Shown: in pieces, positions 1,726-24,700 of the stretch
Numbering within the stretch: the stretch's first letter is position 1
Layout: every line of letters starts with the position of its first letter
From: Elsinoe ampelina
Taxonomy: Eukaryota
Direction: 5' to 3'
DNA length: 64,000 nucleotides
Assembly (NCBI GenBank): GCA_010093995.1
Contig: ML992526.1
Span: 1-64,000 of the forward strand
Position numbers and translations under genes: made by a program
The notes under the pieces: model-generated
Told to the model about the DNA's origin: nothing
Seen by the model: the letters and a program-made list of their open reading frames with translations, nothing else
Database searches by the model: none

Positions 1726-2895
1726 ATGGAGGGCACCGATGCACACCTACATTTGTCGAGCAGGGGGTTGAGCTCACTGGAAGCTCTGCACCAGGGATTT
1801 GGGTCTTTACAGACATTGACAATTGTATGTCTTGCTTTGGCCACTGTCACCATGGGGCTACGGCTCTATGTGAGAAGAGCGATGGTCAAGATCTTCGGGC
1901 CTGAGGATTGGGCTATGTTGGTAGCATTTGTGAGCAGGACGATCTGTAGAGTCCTGTGTGGAGCTGACATCCTGTCAGATGTTCTTCGTGATACACACCT
2001 CGCTTCTTATCGTGGTGTTCAGGCTGGCCGCCCTGCTGTTCTCCGGTCGAATCGCCGTACTACCGCAGGTCGAGAAGGTGAATCTACTCACTTGAATGTC
2101 TTGCTTGTTGACTGAGACTTCCAGCTCTTCCACATCTGTTATGGCTTCTACATCCTCTGCCTCTTGTTTCTTAAGCTCTCCATGGGCTTCTTCTTCCTGC
2201 GCATCCTTCGCCACCGCGCCGTCCAGGTCGCGATCATCTACGCCCTTTGTACCGCCATTGTCGTCTCGGGGCTGATATTCTACGGCTTTGCGGTCTTCAC
2301 TTGTGCTCAGTTCCGAGATCTCACCTCCATTCGGGGCCAGTGTAGATACCAGCTTGCAGCAGATGTCACCAACACCATCTTCTCTGGACTCAACATCGTG
2401 TCGGGAGTCATTTTCGTTGGCCTGGCGGTCTATCCCTTGATCAAGTCCAAAATGCACATGCCTACCAAGATTGTGGCTTCTCTCATTCTTGCGCTCGGTA
2501 GTGTGGGGTGTGTCGCCTCGGCTGTGCGCCTCTCGCTTGTTCTGGAACCAACGGACTATACACGCTGGCTTGCGCAATTCATGTACAGTGGCCGTTGGCT
2601 GGTGACAGAGGTGACATGTGGGATCGTGGCGGCCAACCTTGCTCTCATTCGGCCTCTGCTAAGCCTGATCAGGCAGAGATTGTGTTTGATGATGAGTAGA
2701 CGGAGCAGCGAAGCATCTGGGCCCAATTCGACCGAGGCCGCATATGTAGAGCGAGCAACGATGGAAAGCCAGAAACTCAAGGGTCAGGGCGAGACTCTGA
2801 TGTGGATCGAGAAGAATATGATGCTGTCTGCAAGTGAAGTGGAAAGTAGGCAGGCGTCGTCTGCCATAGATCCAAAGGCTAGCATGACATTATGA
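1726..2895 (+). CDS. PTH11-like rhodopsin-domain integral membrane protein (non-CFEM GPCR-like), 3 exons
   Basis: Introns 1930-1978 and 2078-2124 (GT..CTGAC/TTGAC..AG) join frames. Family motifs LRLYVR...FGPEDW, LKLSMGFFFLRI, LGSVGCVASAVR and EVTCGIVAANL; several hydrophobic helices. Confidence 0.85.
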
Positions 2896-3722
2896 TATAC
2901 CAATAATTTGTTCACCTTCTCCATGCAAAACACCCAAGATCACGTGGTGACGGTGCTCCTTCTCAGTCATCGAAGTAAAAATCAGCGTCATGGCGTGATG
3001 GTTCGCTTGTGCAGCCCACATACAAGTTTTGGAACGCGTCAGGTCGCGTGGTCGAATACCGCTTGTCGATCATGACGGCGGAGGAGTAAACAGCCAACGC
3101 ATACCCCACGATAGATCAAATATGGTGCGATAAAACCACAAAAGTCCATGTGACTGCGACAATTCGATCTTGAGAGAATCTACGTTCGATGTGCCTGAAA
3201 CTTCAAAGGTTGGCTTGCGGGAACGGGTTAATTGTTGGCTGTCACTTTGGCGGCTATTGCATCAATGGCGTCGCCGCCCTGGGGGCAAACTGCACCTCCG
3301 ATTGGCCGCAGTTGTCCTGTCTTGATGCTGCCGCATGTCAAATTCCCTGCTTCATCTCCCCCTACGACTCGTGTCACCACATGGTGCTCTCGCGCCCATA
3401 TACCTCGCTTGCACTGGTGTATGGACTCGATCTTTTCTTCTAGGTCGCTTCTTTGTATTCACGACATCACGATTCTTTCAGCGGCATAGCGGCAGGTGCA
3501 TTCGTCTCGTATTCTTGCGGACGACAGAGTGATAGCGTAGCGAATTACCTTGGATCGAGATTCCACTTCCTGCACTCGTGATCACAGGAATAAGAGCAAG
3601 GACATATCATTGAGCATCAACACTCACACTCAAATCGTTGTTGGATCAGCAAATAATTAGATCGGGCGGGGACAACACATCACCCCAGACAGGAGGGCAG
3701 GGCCTTGTGAGCAGGTCTCACA

Positions 3723-17193: not shown

Positions 17194-18837
17194 TCACATT
17201 TTATCAAACACTTTCGTGCCTGCAATACCTTTCTCCGTGCCAGGTCTCTCCTTGGCTTGGAAGTCAGTTGTGACCACTTCCCTGTCATCGCCCGCAAGTA
17301 GCCCACTGATTTGGCCGACCCATTGCTTACCTCCATCGGGAGCCTTGGTCCGCTTGACTTCAACTTCTTCGCACCTATACCTCGAACCCTCGGCCAGGAC
17401 ATTCCTCCTGTGCCACGCACCAACGAAAACCCCGTCTGGATCTGATTCGTCTCTCACTTTTCTCCATTCCTGCAGTTCAGACCCGAATGTCTCCTCCAGA
17501 TATGGCCTTGCCGAGTCATCGGTAAAGTTCTTCGCCCAATGAGGATGGCCGCCATACTGACGCATCAACCACTCGAAAGCTTCGTAATACCTCGCTCTGC
17601 ACGGCGGATCCTGCAGATAGGGTCTGTAAAGCGTAGCGTTGAGGTAGAGAGTCGGCTCCGTCTTGCAGGTTCCGTCGAGATATGGCCGGACGTTGATCTT
17701 TCTTGTGTCGCTTACCCGAACTTCGATCGGAGCGTGTACCCAGAGCCCTTTTGATGAGAATGGAATGCGATGTTCCTCGAACGGGGCGTGATTGATCCAT
17801 GCTGAGAGGCGGGAGATGATCTCGGGACCTTTGGACAGTGGGACAGCCCATTCGTTGACGAACTGTGAATAGAGACAATTCATCAACAGTCCATACTGCA
17901 TCGACTCGACAGCGTTGGTCGAGTTGCCTGTCTTGAAGCCGTATTGCATACCGAAGACGAACCACTCAATTGCGGGGAGAATACGAGGGAATATGTTGCT
18001 TATGCGCAGTAGGGTGTGGTAGGTGTGAAACCCAACAGATCCGCCATAGAATGACCACGGCGCAGGCCGAGCGGGAGCCTCTGTTTTGTCCGCGGCCCAG
18101 ACGACGCATCGCTTGAGGTAGGGTAGCCACCAAACGCGAATGAACTCATTCGAGGTCCACAGAGAGCTGTCCCAGGTATCAAGAACATGCGAGAGTGGCT
18201 GAAGAGTTTGGGTCCATTCAAGGTTGGTCGCCGGACAGAACTGATAGGTTACCTCGACGATGATTCCAAGTGCGCCTAAAGATAGAAGACCTGCACGGAA
18301 GAGCTCCACGTTCGTCGTGACCGAGCACGTCTGAAGGCTGCCATCTCCAAGAACAATCTTGAAGGAAAGCACCTTGTCGGCAATCGTTCCATGTCGGAGC
18401 GTGCTGCCATGCGTACCAGTACTGATAGCGCCTGCAAACGACTGGTCGACGATGCTGCCAAGGTTCGGAATGGTCATGCCCCGAGCATTTGCCTCTTCGT
18501 TGAGCTTCCAGAGACGAATTCCAGCTTGGACTGTCATGATGTTCTTCTCCTTGTTGACGTCCAGCACCGCGTTCAGCTTGTCGAGATTGACAATCCATGA
18601 GCTGGTCAAGGTCAGGTCGGAGGGCGAGTGACCACATCCTACAGTGACGATTCTGCGCCTACACCGCCGGGCGACCTGGATGAGCTTCTGAACTTCGGTG
18701 ATTGTCTCTGGTTGGAGGTATAGTTCTGGGCGGGAATGAAATGTCTTTGCCCATGTTGAATGTACATGGCTTGTGCTAGATCGGAATGGTACATCTGGCT
18801 GGAAGTCGGCGAGTTCCTGCTTGATGAGAGGATCCAT
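17194..18837 (-). CDS. ALO1: D-arabinono-1,4-lactone oxidase (FAD-linked sugar-1,4-lactone oxidase), 547 aa
   Basis: VGCGHSPSDL covalent-FAD motif, LGSIVDQSFAGAISTGTHGS, PIEVRVS and HPHWAKN. Confidence 0.92.
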   Translation of the reverse strand: MDPLIKQELADFQPDVPFRSSTSHVHSTWAKTFHSRPELYLQPETITEVQKLIQVARRCRRRIVTVGCGHSPSDLTLTSSWIVNLDKLNAVLDVNKEKNIMTVQAGIRLWKLNEEANARGMTIPNLGSIVDQSFAGAISTGTHGSTLRHGTIADKVLSFKIVLGDGSLQTCSVTTNVELFRAGLLSLGALGIIVEVTYQFCPATNLEWTQTLQPLSHVLDTWDSSLWTSNEFIRVWWLPYLKRCVVWAADKTEAPARPAPWSFYGGSVGFHTYHTLLRISNIFPRILPAIEWFVFGMQYGFKTGNSTNAVESMQYGLLMNCLYSQFVNEWAVPLSKGPEIISRLSAWINHAPFEEHRIPFSSKGLWVHAPIEVRVSDTRKINVRPYLDGTCKTEPTLYLNATLYRPYLQDPPCRARYYEAFEWLMRQYGGHPHWAKNFTDDSARPYLEETFGSELQEWRKVRDESDPDGVFVGAWHRRNVLAEGSRYRCEEVEVKRTKAPDGGKQWVGQISGLLAGDDREVVTTDFQAKERPGTEKGIAGTKVFDKM

Positions 18838-19407
18838 GGCGGTGGAGAGGAGAGGAAGAAGAAGCGATGTGTCCCAGGGATGAGAGATTATGGTCGAATC
18901 TTGGAGTCAGACTCAACCGCAACGAGTCAGTAACGACATATCGATGTTTGCCGACTGGTCTATCAGATGCGTTGTAGATGGATGGTGTTGATGACAAAGG
19001 TCACATCCCCGCCATAACTTTTCTCACTTGGTGACGTGAACGACTTTTTGCTTCACATGTCGACGACAACTGGGCTTTTGAGAATCACTGCAACAATCGC
19101 TGTCTCCTCAGATATCTCCACATTACACAGGTGAATTCGCAAACACACAGATCACGTCTAGCTGCTTGCTGTCGTACGACATGAATTAGGCCTGAGAAGC
19201 AAGACTTCGGCAAACGTGACCAATCAGCGCAGGCGGTCCGGAATCACAGCTTCATTTCCGTCATTCATTATCTTTCCTTCCTGTGTGGCACACACGGTCG
19301 CTGCAAGACTTCTGCTTCAATCGTACTCCAGGACAATCAGGTTCTCACGTGTCATCAGCGTGCTTCAGTCGATGAAGCGGCAGTAGCGATCGGATTGGCA
19401 GTGGATC

Positions 19408-20022
19408 ATGCTCAAAACAGCACTCATATCATCGACGTTCACGCGCTGCGTAACGCGCCGTACGCAGACGGTCCTTCGATCTCAGTATCACTATGCGGTA
19501 GATGCCAAATTCGTATTCACGGGTGCTCGCGGCGAGACATCGACAGAGGGGTTCAAGGCGTGGTTGGGCACGGAGACGTCTACCTGCGTTCTCCTTCCTG
19601 GTCGAATTGGCAAGGCATTCCAAAAAGGCATCATTGCTTCAGCAGGCGCTGCGATCAGGTCGGCGCCAGATCGTCTGCCATTGATCTTCGATCACGATAC
19701 CTGCACTTTCGTTAGTCGTGAGTCGTCGGGGCTCTACTGTCGATACTTGTGCTGATGGGACCGCAGCGAGCACGCCGCTACCTCGGATTATCCTGCCTGT
19801 GAATTTGCCGAGACAGACAGACTCGCCGCACACGCCGTCGACACTCTTCATCTACGATGTTGGCGACATGATCACATTCGACGGCACAGAGGATGGTGAG
19901 TCAAGACCGAGGACTTGCACAGGATGGAACACTGATTGAATGCCACAGCCGAATTTGCAGCGCACTCTCAAGACTCTGCAAAAGAGCTTCGCCCAGTATT
20001 GGAGAAACTGAAGGACATGTGA
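19408..20022 (+). CDS. Hypothetical 170-aa protein, 3 exons; presequence-like N-terminus and Phd-like C-terminal helix; candidate Doc partner
   Basis: Introns 19718-19766 (GTGAGT..GCTGAT..CAG) and 19896-19948 (GTGAGT..CTGAT..CAG) give exons of 310+129+74 = 513 nt, open to TGA at 20020-20022. Confidence 0.72.
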
Positions 20023-20090
20023 TTCGATTACTTGGCTGCATCTCATGAAGCTTCTCACATGGCACCTTCCCACCTCTGTCGAACCCAAGG

Positions 20091-20666
20091 CTAATACTCC
20101 TTTGCTTCTGCTCGAAGGCGCTCAATCTCTTTAGACACACTCTGCACTGGTCTCGCGATTGACTCGTAGCATTGAGCAAGCTGCTCTGTCGTCCATTCGT
20201 TGTTGACAACGGCCAGGTGCGCCTTGCTAAGAATGGTATTGGTGCGTTCGTCTTGGAATGGCACCTGCTGGAGGGCATAGCCGTTGATCTTCAGGAAGGT
20301 GTCGGCGACCAACATGGCTGCCCTCTTATTTCCATCCTGGAAAGCATGATTCTTCGCCACTTTTTCCGAGAGATTGGCTGCGAGGCGAAAAACATTCTGC
20401 TCTTGGGTGTAGTGCTTGATATTGATCGGAGAGTTCATGGCAGACTCGAGCAGGTCTGGCTGGACGAGAGCCGCCTCGGTGAGATGGTTATGCAGGAGTC
20501 TTTGTACAAGCTCGACTGTAAGAAAGCGAAAGGTCTTGAGGGGCGTGGCAGCCATTGTCCGCTTGGTTTTGGGGATTGTCTGTAGTTGTAAACTGGGTAT
20601 CAAGTTTTGAGGTACTCTCTCAGTGAATTTCTGCTGTCTGAAGGTGCAGAATGCTGGCCTCGACAT
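20091..20666 (-). CDS. Fic/Doc-family (death-on-curing type) protein, copy 1; probable main start at 20555 (154 aa), in-frame upstream ATG at 20666
   Basis: LLESAMNSP and NHAFQDGNKRAA (motif at 20322-20348), then FLKING; intronless. Confidence 0.88.
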   Translation of the reverse strand: MSRPAFCTFRQQKFTERVPQNLIPSLQLQTIPKTKRTMAATPLKTFRFLTVELVQRLLHNHLTEAALVQPDLLESAMNSPINIKHYTQEQNVFRLAANLSEKVAKNHAFQDGNKRAAMLVADTFLKINGYALQQVPFQDERTNTILSKAHLAVVNNEWTTEQLAQCYESIARPVQSVSKEIERLRAEAKEY

Positions 20667-20943
20667 GATCCTCTTATACTACGTGCGTGACAGATAATGC
20701 TGCCCCTCAGCCCCAGCTGTTGCAGTCCAAGCAGCGTCTCGCCCAACCGCGCCGCCTTGCCACGAGCGAGACGCCGCACCGCCATGTTTCACAAAGCCGA
20801 TAGTTCGACAAGCGCCAACTAGAGCCTTTGCCAGATTGATTCCGTTGGGCCAGATTACATCAATTTTTCGAAGCCGAATGAAATTCTCGATGGCATTCGA
20901 GGTTATGTTGTCCTGGTGCAGCTCGTATCGTAGATGACCTCTG

Positions 20944-21345
20944 TCACTTGGAGGCGATCTCTTCGTAGTACTTTCCCAGCTCCTCTCCAGTCCACTCCCC
21001 GGTGACAACCCTGACCTGAGCATCTGCGAGCTCATCTTCTGCCCGTTCATTGCTCACACGTAGCCTCTTTCCGTGCAACCTGAGGAAGACATCCGCAGCA
21101 AAGAGCGCAGTCCTCTTGTTCCCATCTTGAAACGGATGATTGCGCGCCAACTTCTCCGCAAGATGCGATGCAAGCTGGTAGTGGTTCTCCTCGCCCGTGT
21201 AATGAGATAAATTCTCGGGTGACTCGCACGCAGAAGACAGCATCGCTGGCTGCGAGAGCGGAGTCGAGAAACCCATTAGTAGTTTATGCAGGATGTGGAC
21301 CTGATTGGGCCTCAAAAACCGGAACGGTGAACAAGGAGTCGACAT
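20944..21345 (-). CDS. Fic/Doc-family protein, copy 2, 133 aa
   Basis: MLSSACESP and NHPFQDGNKRTA (motif at 21112-21138), then FLRLHG; intronless; collinear with copy 1. Confidence 0.88.
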   Translation of the reverse strand: MSTPCSPFRFLRPNQVHILHKLLMGFSTPLSQPAMLSSACESPENLSHYTGEENHYQLASHLAEKLARNHPFQDGNKRTALFAADVFLRLHGKRLRVSNERAEDELADAQVRVVTGEWTGEELGKYYEEIASK

Positions 21346-21716
21346 GCTTGCCCCTCACGATGCGCGCGATTCATCAAGCCATTGTGTAGATTTCGAGATG
21401 CAGCATTGAAGCAAAGGAAAACCCCACAGATTCAGCACGTGACCACATTCCCATTCTGCGCTCCGTGGACCCGCGCGCGCACCGTCTCTCCCTCCTTCCC
21501 ACCTCTTCATCATCAACCCTCATCTGATCTAACCAAATCAAGGAAAAGCCAGCATGCGCGACGTCGATGTCCTCTTCTGCCTTGGCCTTGAAAGCAGGGT
21601 TGGAGGAGGAGGACTGAAGGAATTTGGAGACTGGGCACTTTCAAGGACCACCAAAGAACTTGTCTTCATATTACAACGACTTTTGTATTATGTACATCTG
21701 AAATTCCCACTATTAC

Positions 21717-24700
21717 TCATGCAGAGTTGCGCATGAACCAATCCGTCGAGGGATCAAACTCAAAATTAGTAATGTTGAACTCATTAGGAAGAGCATTGCC
21801 ATCTGCAGCTCCTGCTGCTTGACCAAGATCCATCTGCTCAGTACCAGCCATACCCCCGTTGGCTGGGTCAACGCCAGCTGGTAGCCGTGGTAGGTTGAAG
21901 AAGTCGAAGACGTCAAGGTATTCGAGCTCATTCGGTGCCGGGGTCCGCGCAGGAGTCACCGTGGTAGTACCTCCTGCTGTCCGAATACGATCGAGGGGGA
22001 ATTGGCGTGGCTGACGGCTTATTAGGAAGTCCAGATCGTAGGCAGTGCGCCTCATGTCTGCGAGGATTTTGACAGTGCTGGGAGTTACCCGCTCGCCGTT
22101 GAGATCGCCCCCAGATTGTTCGGATTCGTGATATTCATCGAGAACTCTTGTGAGCAGTACAGCGTAACGCTCAGCTACTTTTTGGTAGGCACCCATCTCT
22201 CGCAGCGTATCGACGAGGGGGTGGATGTTTGGGTTTACCCGGTGATCGATAGTCGAGCCATGCACGAGCAATAGACGGGCAGCCACCCATAGGGAGAATG
22301 CAAAAGGAGGCCCGAGAGTGTTGAGCAGGTTGTTGGATCGCACGAACTTGTTCAGTGCACATATATCCTCTACGGCATTGTGACACCGTTGCGATGCCGA
22401 GTATGAAGGTGTGAAAATTGGCGAGCGTGTGGTAGGATATGCAGCAGATGAGTGAAGGCGGATGATGACACTGGTAGGAAGGTCAGCCAGAGAACTACCA
22501 GAACAGGCTCCCTCGTACGGTCGCTAAGATCTTAGCAGCCCCGATACAAGGTCGGATTCAGTAATTACTACCAGATGGTCGCAACGATATCATTTGAGTG
22601 GTTCTGCACATACGAATACGCTGATATATTGACGCAAAACTACCAGACCGACACGATCAAGGCACAGAGAAAACGGGAGTGACTTACGTGTGGTAGGTAA
22701 TGTGGAGCATAATCCACATGGTGTTGATGGTTTTGTTGGCCCCCGTAGCAAACATGCGTGACATGTTGCCGTACTCGGAGGGCAAGCTGAACTTCCATCG
22801 ATTCAGACTTCCGTCGAGCTCACGGTATTCCCTTTGCCACTGCTCCACATCGGACAGGGCACCTATATCTACCGGTTTCTTCAAGAACCTATGCACTCTC
22901 GAGAGAATACCGAGAACCTCGATATAGTACGAGAAGGTGCCGAGGTTAGCCGCTTTTGGGTCGGTTTGGTCTGGGTATTCTGAAGTCGAAAACCATCTCG
23001 TTTCAACTGGAGCATTGCGGGCGAATTGGTCTTCTCGGCATGGCAATCGGCGATCGATCTCCTTGTCGTCAAGAGCAAATTCGAAAGCTGTTGCAATGGT
23101 CGCATATCGATCGAGGATATAGATCATCCAAAATAGGCGCCGGCGGCTCTCGTCCTCGATGAAATCCCGCGGTTCTGGTAGTACCATAGCTCGCAACGTG
23201 TAAATAGATGGGTAGAGCGGCGATACTGTCATCGAGTTCGGCTCAACAGCTAGGCCTAGTTGAACGACACTCCTGGTGATTAATGCCAGCATATTCCAGC
23301 CAGGGGGACCATTTGAGAAGCCAATGATATCAAGAGCAAGTATAACCAATGCCTGTAAAGCCTTGACTGAGCTGTTGTCGAGTCCGTACAGGAGAACCTT
23401 CTGTTTTGATTTGTTGTAGTATCTCTCTCGAGCTTGCTGCTCCAGTCGTGGGTCCGTCGAGAATTTCAGCGTCGTGGCAACAAGGGCATGAAGCAGAATC
23501 CTGTCCGCTTCATCAAGACTATTCGAGCCAAACAGAGAGTCTAGAGTCGCCCGTCGATGTAATATGGGGCACCACGTATTGATGTGCTTGAAGTATAGGT
23601 CCACGAGTGCATAGAGTAAGTCATACGGCGGTAGGTCAGCGTCTTGTGCCACAGTCATGGCTGTATCTGTAGAGCTGCTTGTGGTACCTGGTATATTGAG
23701 GCTGGCGGATTCAAGGTGCGGATTGGTCGGTTCGAACATGTTTGTGCCGGTCGGTGTGGACTGCATCCGTGCTACCGGAGTCTGTCCCTGTGTGAGGCCT
23801 TGAGGTGGCGGCATGCCATTGCTGTTTCTGTGGGCGCCAAACCCTGGCTGCATCTGGCGCTCGTGAGGACTGTTGTATGATACTGGGGCCCGTTGCATGT
23901 AGTATGAGTCGGTATGACTTCGGGCGTTCGATATGACTGAAGCTGGCGAAGGGGTGTTGTGGGCTGCTTGAGGTTGCATTTGTGGAGGAGCAGTCGGTTG
24001 TTGAACTCCTGGTAGTACATTTGCGAGCTGTTGGAGGAGCTGCTGCTGGGTCTGAAGGACACCTTCAAGCTTGTCTACACGTTGTCAATTGCAAGACCCC
24101 TTGTCCGCAGTCCTATGAGGCTTACCTAGTCGTGTCTCCAGCTCTCGTCCATAGCCAGCTCTGTTTCGTTGTCAGAATTTGGGTCCCATCTCTGGCGAAT
24201 TCATTCGAGCTATCTTTCAAGGACGGAAAGCTTGAGCGCTGTCCTCTGACTATCAGACAAGCTAAGGTGATGACCGAGCCGGCTTGACTGACCAACGTGA
24301 CCATCAGACCAGATCCACGTACTGGCCAATGCAGTATTGAAAAGCTGACCAATGCGACGTTGACTACCAGACACGGATGTATGTACCGATGTAGAGAGTT
24401 TGACTTACCGCAGGCCAGGTTTCTTCCGCTCCTTGTATTCACAATTGTGGCCATTTCTTAGACACCACCCTGCATCTCGGGTCAATTCTTGACGGCGACA
24501 GGCCAAGGATCTACATACCACAGGCAGGTTGACCGCGGTCGCATTTCACCTGTTGCACGTGCTACGTCAGTACAGTCTCGGTGCGGCTTGCAGGATGATA
24601 CAAGCTACTACCGGGTGGACGAGGGCTCACCTTTCTTTGCTTGCAGAGCTCGCATGATACAGAAAGAGGTCGCTTTGCACGCTTCCTCTTGCGCGTATCC

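Follow-up and report, generated by a model that had tools for sequence, protein, structure and literature searches.

We identified, in a 64,000-nucleotide (nt) stretch of Elsinoe ampelina DNA (contig ML992526.1, positions 1 to 64,000; hereafter the window), two tandem genes of the Doc family of Fic-fold enzymes that face a small three-exon gene, which we call the partner. Genes of these two families lie side by side in three classes of fungi, namely Dothideomycetes, Eurotiomycetes, and Sordariomycetes. We propose that they form a conserved fungal Doc-partner module. In this module, the partner would bind and regulate Doc, most simply by inhibition, and Doc would phosphorylate a GTPase of the EF-Tu family. 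We give this reading a probability of about 0.55.

The partner gene encodes 170 amino acids (aa). Its product was identical to the annotated protein P0001 and showed 100% identity to an NCBI protein of E. ampelina, in agreement with the origin of the DNA. Contigs of four public runs (X3, X4, X5, and X6; three studies, two organism labels) were mapped on positions 19000-21800. The features of the locus are as follows.

19408..19717, forward strand: partner exon 1, from the reading frame and the match to P0001, ending at the contig joint 19717>19767 in 4/4 runs; encodes an Arg/Lys-rich, acid-free N-terminus and then the start of a beta-rich core
19718..19766, forward strand: partner intron 1, 49 nt, GT..AG, skipped in contigs of X3, X4, X5, and X6
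19767..19895, forward strand: partner exon 2, with the LPRQTD and FDGTED motifs conserved in the family alignment
19896..19948, forward strand: partner intron 2, 53 nt, GT..AG, phase 1, right after DGTED plus G, skipped in 4/4 runs
19949..20022, forward strand: partner exon 3 and stop codon, encoding the C-terminal helix that ends in LEKLKDM
20023..20090, no strand: spacer between the convergent stops, 68 nt, covered by transcript contigs
20091..20555, reverse strand: Doc copy 1, 154 aa and stop (stop codon 20091-20093), intronless, with a C-terminal tail helix
20322..20348, reverse strand: copy 1 motif H-A-F-Q-D-G-N-K-R, residues 70-78
20556..20943, reverse strand: spacer between the two Doc genes, 388 nt, transcribed (X4 and X5 contigs)
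20944..21345, reverse strand: Doc copy 2, 133 aa and stop (stop codon 20944-20946), intronless, lacking the C-terminal tail
21112..21138, reverse strand: copy 2 motif H-P-F-Q-D-G-N-K-R, residues 70-78
21346..21373, reverse strand: short 5' leader of copy 2, where contigs end at 21366-21373, a weak hint of a transcript start

The two minus-strand genes belong to the Doc family by hidden Markov model (HMM) scores, by motif and, for copy 1, by fold. The NCBIfam model TIGR01550 DOC_P1 scored 54.6 bits for copy 1 and 45.4 bits for copy 2, above its curated cut-off of 38.65. The Pfam Fic model PF02661 gave 46.3 bits (expectation value (E) 7.9e-12) and 50.5 bits (E 4e-13), respectively, with a cut-off of 24. 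Doc proteins have Lys where AMP transferases have Gly. The consensus H-x-F-x-(D/N)-(A/G)-N-K-R, taken in part from PMC2686095, was matched by HAFQDGNKR in copy 1 and HPFQDGNKR in copy 2. In the alignment of fungal sequences, H70, Q73, D74, G75, N76, K77, and R78 were invariant in 14/14. The motif of AMP-transferring Fic proteins, given in the same paper as H-P-F-x-(D/E)-G-N-G-R-x-x-R, did not fit either copy: Lys stands at the second Gly, and Met or Leu takes the place of the last Arg (HAFQDGNKRAAM, HPFQDGNKRTAL). This was what the first-pass annotation, made from the letters of the window, had seen in the motif, and its assignment of both genes to the Doc subfamily held.

The comparison with known structures was consistent with the motif. 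A profile of 14 fungal homologues was compared with the PDB sequences and matched P1 Doc and a 'death-on-curing family protein' (E 3e-7 and 5e-8), with the fungal motif and the P1 Doc motif aligned residue for residue. The fold comparison was made for copy 1, whose AlphaFold2 model (25-row alignment) had a mean predicted local distance difference test score (pLDDT) of 86.2 and a predicted template-modelling score (pTM) of 0.84. In Foldseek, the top five matches of this model were all P1 Doc chains (E 3.6e-5 to 2.9e-4; template-modelling score (TM) by target 0.82-0.84), and AMP-transferring Fic proteins came next with TM <0.5. P1 Doc is a kinase that phosphorylates EF-Tu at Thr382, according to a review (PMC10532202). 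Because the whole Doc catalytic motif is kept, phosphate transfer from ATP to a protein is the most likely reaction. The fungal Doc proteins are thus most likely active phosphotransferases, as P1 Doc is on EF-Tu.

The gene models were supported by the mapped contigs. These contigs were taken as assembled transcripts because of their spliced joints, which were the sole basis since no run was recorded as RNA. In 4/4 runs, the contigs skipped exactly both partner introns (19718-19766 and 19895/6-19947/8), which confirmed the three-exon model. The convergent gene foreseen in the first-pass annotation was therefore real, by its splicing and by its identity to P0001, and the distance of about 70 bp predicted between the stops was 68 nt between the partner and copy 1 stop codons. 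The same annotation had described the Doc genes as tandem, intronless, and of Fic fold. The PF02661 and TIGR01550 matches agreed with it, and the Doc genes were intronless because 20034-21373 held no contig joint. The open reading frame (ORF) of copy 1 covers 20091-20666 on the minus strand. Its ATG at 20555 was chosen as the start because it agrees with the N-termini of all homologues, and the protein carries KNHAFQDGNKRAA. The copy 2 ORF (20944-21345, minus strand, 133 aa) carries RNHPFQDGNKRTA.

All three genes were covered by contigs in 4/4 runs. A single contig in X4 and in X5, from ~19080-19097 to 21366, contained the partner, the convergent junction, copy 1, the spacer, and copy 2. The whole block is transcribed, spacers included; a contig that spans genes is no proof of one mRNA. 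The convergent partner and copy 1 cannot sit on one mRNA, and the contigs bridge copy 2 and copy 1. Cover stopped at 21366-21373 in 4/4 runs, 21-28 nt upstream of the copy 2 ATG. In X3 and X6, the contigs broke within copy 1 or shortly before its start (20426-20455, 20594-20622), and the copy 2 side was at about half depth. The bridging in X4 and X5 and the breaks around copy 1 in X3 and X6 could be the result of read-through or overlapping transcripts. The partner contigs began near 19071-19097, about 310-340 nt ahead of the ATG.

The linkage of the two families was seen in other fungi. In three over-long gene models of Trichophyton interdigitale/T. mentagrophytes (P0143, P0287, and P0290; 255 and 271 aa), ~145 residues come after a Doc domain and terminate in LERLKDM; the window partner ends in LEKLKDM. 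Aligned by BLASTP, the partner and P0287 were 30% identical over 161 aa (E 1e-20). When the partner was compared by phmmer with 291 collected proteins, the only matches outside Elsinoe were P0290, P0287, and P0143 (E 1e-17 to 9e-16) and P0239 (E 4.4e-7), and a Doc domain was present in all four. P0239, from Akanthomyces lecanii (305 aa), has a partner-like region at 10-163 and the C-terminal half of a Doc domain at 236-303. It is most likely a partner gene and a Doc gene on the same strand that the annotator merged, because it leaves the family alignment after TLDGTAD, at the position of Elsinoe intron 2. A four-row family profile returned the same six proteins (E 1e-93 to 5e-65), and the next best protein reached E 0.45. 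This was P0193 of a lichen-forming Gyalolechia sp. (metagenome-assembled genome, 272 aa), and it was not counted as a member. It has a 110-residue extension before its Doc domain with a presequence-like start, and its PLFFYDSCYF recalls PLIFDHDTCTF of the partner.

JGI metagenome contigs were scanned with the partner profile, and two of 240 pattern matches were confirmed (L001 and L002). L002 was a 51-residue, pattern-driven match on an AT-rich repetitive contig lacking a Doc gene and was judged unrelated. L001 is a Trichophyton rubrum-like contig of 4122 bp, and its Doc ORF (2431-2840) encodes the same sequence as T. rubrum P0284. Only 10 nt separate the Doc stop codon (2838-2840) from the partner ATG (2851), which lies downstream on the same strand. 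The partner ORF begins with MLRYLPRTLRGGSSRAVRRHFHQ and continues to 3285. An intron of 65 nt follows (3286-3350), and LEKLKDM closes the last exon (module 2431-3425). The intron agrees with Elsinoe intron 2 in the codon that it follows and in phase, and Elsinoe intron 1 is absent, the ORF being continuous there. Because L001 has a separate Doc stop and partner ATG, with an in-frame stop dividing the two ORFs, the Trichophyton 'fusions' are read as two head-to-tail genes. Other Trichophyton annotations give Doc alone (127 or 136 aa), and the junctions of P0143 and P0287 differ. The 10-nt spacing in L001 is operon-like although the genome is eukaryotic; Doc and partner may share a dicistronic mRNA, or a promoter may lie within the Doc gene.

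Three arrangements were thus found. The genes are tail-to-tail in Elsinoe, Doc precedes the partner in Trichophyton, and the partner precedes Doc on the same strand in Akanthomyces. Every partner homologue found outside Elsinoe was within one gene model of Doc or 10 nt away from it. The first-pass annotation had asked for homologues of the 19408 gene beside Doc genes elsewhere, and the answer was positive in both other lineages with a homologue, Trichophyton and Akanthomyces. The flanks of L001 (2.4 kb and 0.7 kb) had nothing in common with the 64-kb window. Because the pair stays together at ~30% identity, in changed orientations, and with no common flanks, we argue that selection rather than inertia probably maintains the adjacency. 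Type II toxin-antitoxin systems keep the toxin gene beside its partner gene across genomes, and the Doc and partner genes were adjacent in E. ampelina, L001, and P0239.

The partner itself was characterized by its predicted shape and composition. Its AlphaFold2 model (7-row alignment) had a mean pLDDT of 67.6 and a pTM of 0.64. Residues 1-27 were disordered, residues 29-141 formed a core rich in strands, with a single helix (65-79) and with blocks at pLDDT 80-90, and a long C-terminal helix (147-169) was predicted with low confidence (pLDDT ~50). Foldseek with this model gave no match at E<=0.001. An MP1/roadblock-like fold was considered and rejected, as the best VIA-align score (Z 4.7, root-mean-square deviation 4.1 over 94 residues) was below the noise level. 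In the ESM Atlas, the best partner score was 0.78, below lead level, and the partner part of the Trichophyton proteins had no usable match. A folded domain with an uncertain terminal helix would fit a tail that folds on a binding partner, like Phd on Doc; this is an analogy, not evidence.

An Arg/Lys-rich, acid-free N-terminus is the composition of mitochondrial presequences. In 4/4 confirmed N-termini of the partner family (two Elsinoe, L001, and Akanthomyces), the first 30 residues held 5-7 Arg/Lys, and acidic residues were absent before position 27-40. The extension of the Gyalolechia protein P0193, whose membership was not significant, showed the same composition. The partner N-terminus thus looks like a mitochondrial presequence, and import is putative, judged by composition.

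Based on these results, the proposed mechanism is as follows. The Doc paralogues would act as kinases, using ATP to phosphorylate a protein in the way P1 Doc phosphorylates EF-Tu. The fungus-specific partner would bind Doc and control it, in the simplest form by inhibition, as Phd inhibits Doc. The Doc target would be a translation GTPase of the EF-Tu family, either mitochondrial EF-Tu or eEF1A. The EF-Tu orthologue resides in mitochondria, and the partner may be imported there, where its presequence points. A more far-reaching form of this proposal would make the locus a two-gene toxin-antitoxin-like system, the first in eukaryotes. A Doc kinase derived from bacteria would be restrained by a newly evolved, intron-bearing, mitochondrially targeted partner. 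The pair would control translation via mitochondrial EF-Tu or eEF1A in dormancy, stress, or conflict, with a cis version in tailed Docs. Taken as a whole, we regard this form as tentative and rather doubtful.

Several results weigh against the Doc-partner module. The initial search for partner homologues was word-based with exon 1 as the query. It confirmed 2/3 candidates, both from Elsinoe, namely the gene itself and E. batatas KVT40_007366 (81%), and it returned no partner from E. australis or from the assemblies with a copy 1-like/copy 2-like pair (P0004 and P0036). In E. batatas, the nearest relative, the copy 2 orthologue KVT40_007349 (P0035) and the partner orthologue KVT40_007366 (P0002) are 17 locus tags apart, apparently on the same contig, and adjacency may be broken there. 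The linkage sample consisted of three lineages. In addition, the homologues were met via over-long Doc matches, a route that could reveal only partners close to Doc; the metagenome scan, which was unbiased as to Doc proximity, contributed one usable locus. As for the protein, the partner matched nothing in Pfam, NCBIfam, PADLOC, or the PDB sequences, and it resembled no known antitoxin family (Phd/YefM, MazE, YhfG, and others). With 170 aa and introns, it is unlike a Phd-type antitoxin. No relative of it was found among 7558 six-frame ORFs beside the best 80 bacterial Doc loci (best E 1.6), and because of this it looks like a fungal invention, not an imported antitoxin. Finally, the Doc N-termini were less clearly presequence-like than that of the partner; should the partner be imported and Doc not, they would end up in different compartments. 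The toxin-antidote reading of the first-pass annotation was therefore only partly sustained: the Doc identity and the linkage stood, while the partner resembled no known antitoxin and the E. batatas genes were apart.

Some of these results would also be expected if the neighbour had nothing to do with Doc. The two would then lie together by chance, or as a remnant of shared ancestry or of the transfer of a small block as a whole, and selection would play no part in their linkage. Three documented lineages are few, the E. batatas orthologues are separated, close convergent pairs are common in compact fungal genomes, and fungal Doc genes were described as solitary in PMC1626090. However, all partner homologues outside Elsinoe adjoin Doc at ~30% identity, in three orientations, and with no common flanks, which is hard to obtain without selection. 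We consider an unrelated neighbour improbable. If the link is functional, the partner may still be something other than an inhibitor, such as a Doc substrate, an activator, an adaptor, or the carrier of Doc to mitochondria. The linkage in three classes and the presequence-like N-terminus in 4/4 confirmed members would suit such roles. The folded beta-rich core of ~110 residues exceeds a simple antitoxin peptide, and some annotations join Doc and partner as one protein. These joined models disagree with each other, however, as the junctions of P0143 and P0287 show, and the in-frame stop in L001 separates the ORFs. A partner of this kind is unlikely in our judgement, and it is the alternative to inhibition that we take most seriously.

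The pair could also be a selfish toxin-antidote element, one that secures its inheritance through addiction, spore killing, or drive in the manner of phd-doc in phage P1. The homology to an addiction toxin, the scatter of named fungal matches over many genera, the placement of paralogues in the tree that does not follow species groups, and the occurrence of the pair with no common flanks would all agree with this. However, the locus lies between ordinary housekeeping-type genes at a normal G+C of 0.50-0.55, and no transposon features were noticed there. The genes were present in transcript contigs of four runs from three studies, and the internal supports of the tree were mostly modest. Among the alternatives, we find a selfish element the least probable. 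The Doc-partner module under selection for linkage remained the preferred explanation.

A C-terminal tail divides the fungal Doc proteins. Copy 1 and many fungal Docs have a conserved extra C-terminal helix (..EI..F...A..Y), which is absent from bacterial Doc and from copy 2. In copy 1, it covers about residues 141-154 (20094-20135), and the model has a helix at 142-150 with pLDDT ~88. Tail-bearing homologues include P0005, P0006, P0031, P0038, and P0039. The Docs that adjoin a partner were tail-less in 3/3 lineages, represented by window copy 2, Trichophyton, and Akanthomyces. It is an attractive idea that the tail replaces the partner in cis; sequence comparison gave it no support. Homology between the copy 1 tail and the C-terminal helix of the partner was rejected, as the hhalign probability was 0.1 and MAFFT juxtaposed them only in misaligned alignments.

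The family to which the two Doc genes belong was then delimited. The homologue searches gave 21 matches from 50 candidates for copy 1 and 99 from 113 for copy 2. When 1.84 billion representatives were searched with a profile, 6872 matched at E<=0.001 and only 38 at E<=1e-30. One of the matches was spurious: P0199, a SprB-repeat protein from bacteria (4062 aa), which reached E 7.5e-23 by way of 13 short stretches. The named members of the close set were Pezizomycotina only, labelled 'DOC family protein' or 'Fido domain-containing protein'. Their genera were Elsinoe (E. australis and E. batatas), Pyricularia, Penicillium, Tolypocladium, Coniochaeta, Fusarium, Pseudovirgaria, Phialemonium, Phyllosticta, Trichophyton, and Lasiodiplodia.

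For the maximum-likelihood tree, 48 rows were chosen from ~290 proteins, excluding fragments and most of the unnamed representatives. Of these rows, 16 were named fungal sequences, 11 were named bacterial ones, and 21 had no name; the tree was unrooted. All 16 named fungal rows fell into one clade with support 95/89, together with 10 unnamed fungal-like rows and the metagenome row P0147. Of 22 rows that carried a bacterial or bacterial-like label, 20 were separated by a branch with support 99/95. The two exceptions were P0147, which fell within the fungal clade, and P0227, its sister on a long branch. Copy 1 grouped with E. australis (100/99) and then with Penicillium and P0005 (94/91). Copy 2 grouped with E. 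batatas (100/97), with two unnamed assemblies (100/99), and then with Pseudovirgaria and Trichophyton (80/84). Among the returned homologues, there was no E. batatas orthologue of copy 1. The two copies group with different genera, and therefore they appear, with moderate support, to be old paralogues that predate the genus Elsinoe. Internal supports were mostly modest, and the placement of paralogues departed from species groups.

The prokaryotic relatives were obtained from one genome per species (185,579 species). The scan confirmed 303 of 368 candidate stretches, and the best 80 of the 303 were used. These nearest prokaryotic genes showed only 35-48% identity over partial length and were mostly from Beta- and Gammaproteobacteria. 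Derivation of fungal Doc from bacteria is a reasonable inference because of the distribution of Doc genes.

The fungal locus was compared with known systems. It shares with Phd-Doc of phage P1 the enzyme family, the motif H-x-F-x-D-(A/G)-N-K-R, the fold, and a small gene kept adjacent. It differs in its eukaryotic host, in a partner not homologous to Phd or any listed antitoxin, in the introns and presequence-like N-terminus of that partner, and in having two Doc paralogues. The gene order and strand in fungi also vary by lineage. The solitary fungal 'DOC family protein' genes, for example in Aspergillus fumigatus, belong to the same fungal Doc clade, whereas the window locus has a conserved neighbour family. 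Class I Fic toxins such as VbhT-VbhA and FicT-FicA pair a Fic-fold enzyme with a small separate protein and carry an inhibitory-helix motif. These were weak structural neighbours of copy 1 (TM <0.5). They are, however, AMP transferases with G-N-G-R; in the window Docs, Lys replaces the second Gly, and the fungal alignment showed no conserved inhibitory motif. The Spok and wtf drivers follow a poison-antidote logic in eukaryotes, for which a parallel to bacterial type II systems has been drawn (PMC12693581), but they belong to unrelated families and consist of single genes or of overlapping transcripts. In the same paper, the terms Doc, Fic, and Fido had no occurrences.

Fungal Doc genes have been noticed before. 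In 2006, Fico and Mahillon reported a solitary Doc homologue in Aspergillus fumigatus, which would be the first fungal toxin-antitoxin locus if functional (PMC1626090). In 2008, entries from A. fumigatus and Coccidioides were listed as Doc 'bad poisons' (PMC2446400). These two papers gave the function of the genes as not known. In 2009, Fic/Doc sequences were noted in 'a few fungi' (PMC2686095). The later mentions found were entries in expression tables: AFUA_8G06180 was up during conidiation (PMC5838799), and TERG_02161 was down with terbinafine (PMC6963840). We found no literature on a partner or function of fungal Doc, with most subscription journals outside the search, which agreed with the first-pass annotation. 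The Doc genes are a known, annotated family, and it is the partner family and its conserved linkage that appear new.

The module lies between two other genes.

17194-18837, reverse strand: left neighbour, ALO-type oxidase (PF04030 and PF01565)
21717-23979: right neighbour, with a fungal transcription factor domain (PF04082)

The left neighbour was of the ALO type, as annotated at first pass. The 64-kb window held no further copies. In X3, the partner contig extended leftwards by another ~2.5 kb and crossed the divergent ALO-type gene, and the transcripts of the two divergent genes seem to overlap or share a region. Two strain differences were observed in X4, X5, and X6. One of them, 19560 G>T, changes GCG to GCT and is synonymous at partner Ala51, and the other, 20648 A>G, is located 5' of the copy 1 start. 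The X3 contigs were the same as the window at both positions.

Toxin-antitoxin modules are regarded as a prokaryotic invention. With a partner beside Doc in three classes of filamentous fungi, the fungal Doc gene would change from a solitary curiosity into a testable two-component system with a candidate regulator. The prediction is that the partner accompanies tail-less Doc genes and not tailed ones. If the pair controls an elongation factor, it would represent a new regulation of translation or mitochondrial function in fungi, and it would be an example of a bacterial toxin tamed after transfer to a eukaryote.

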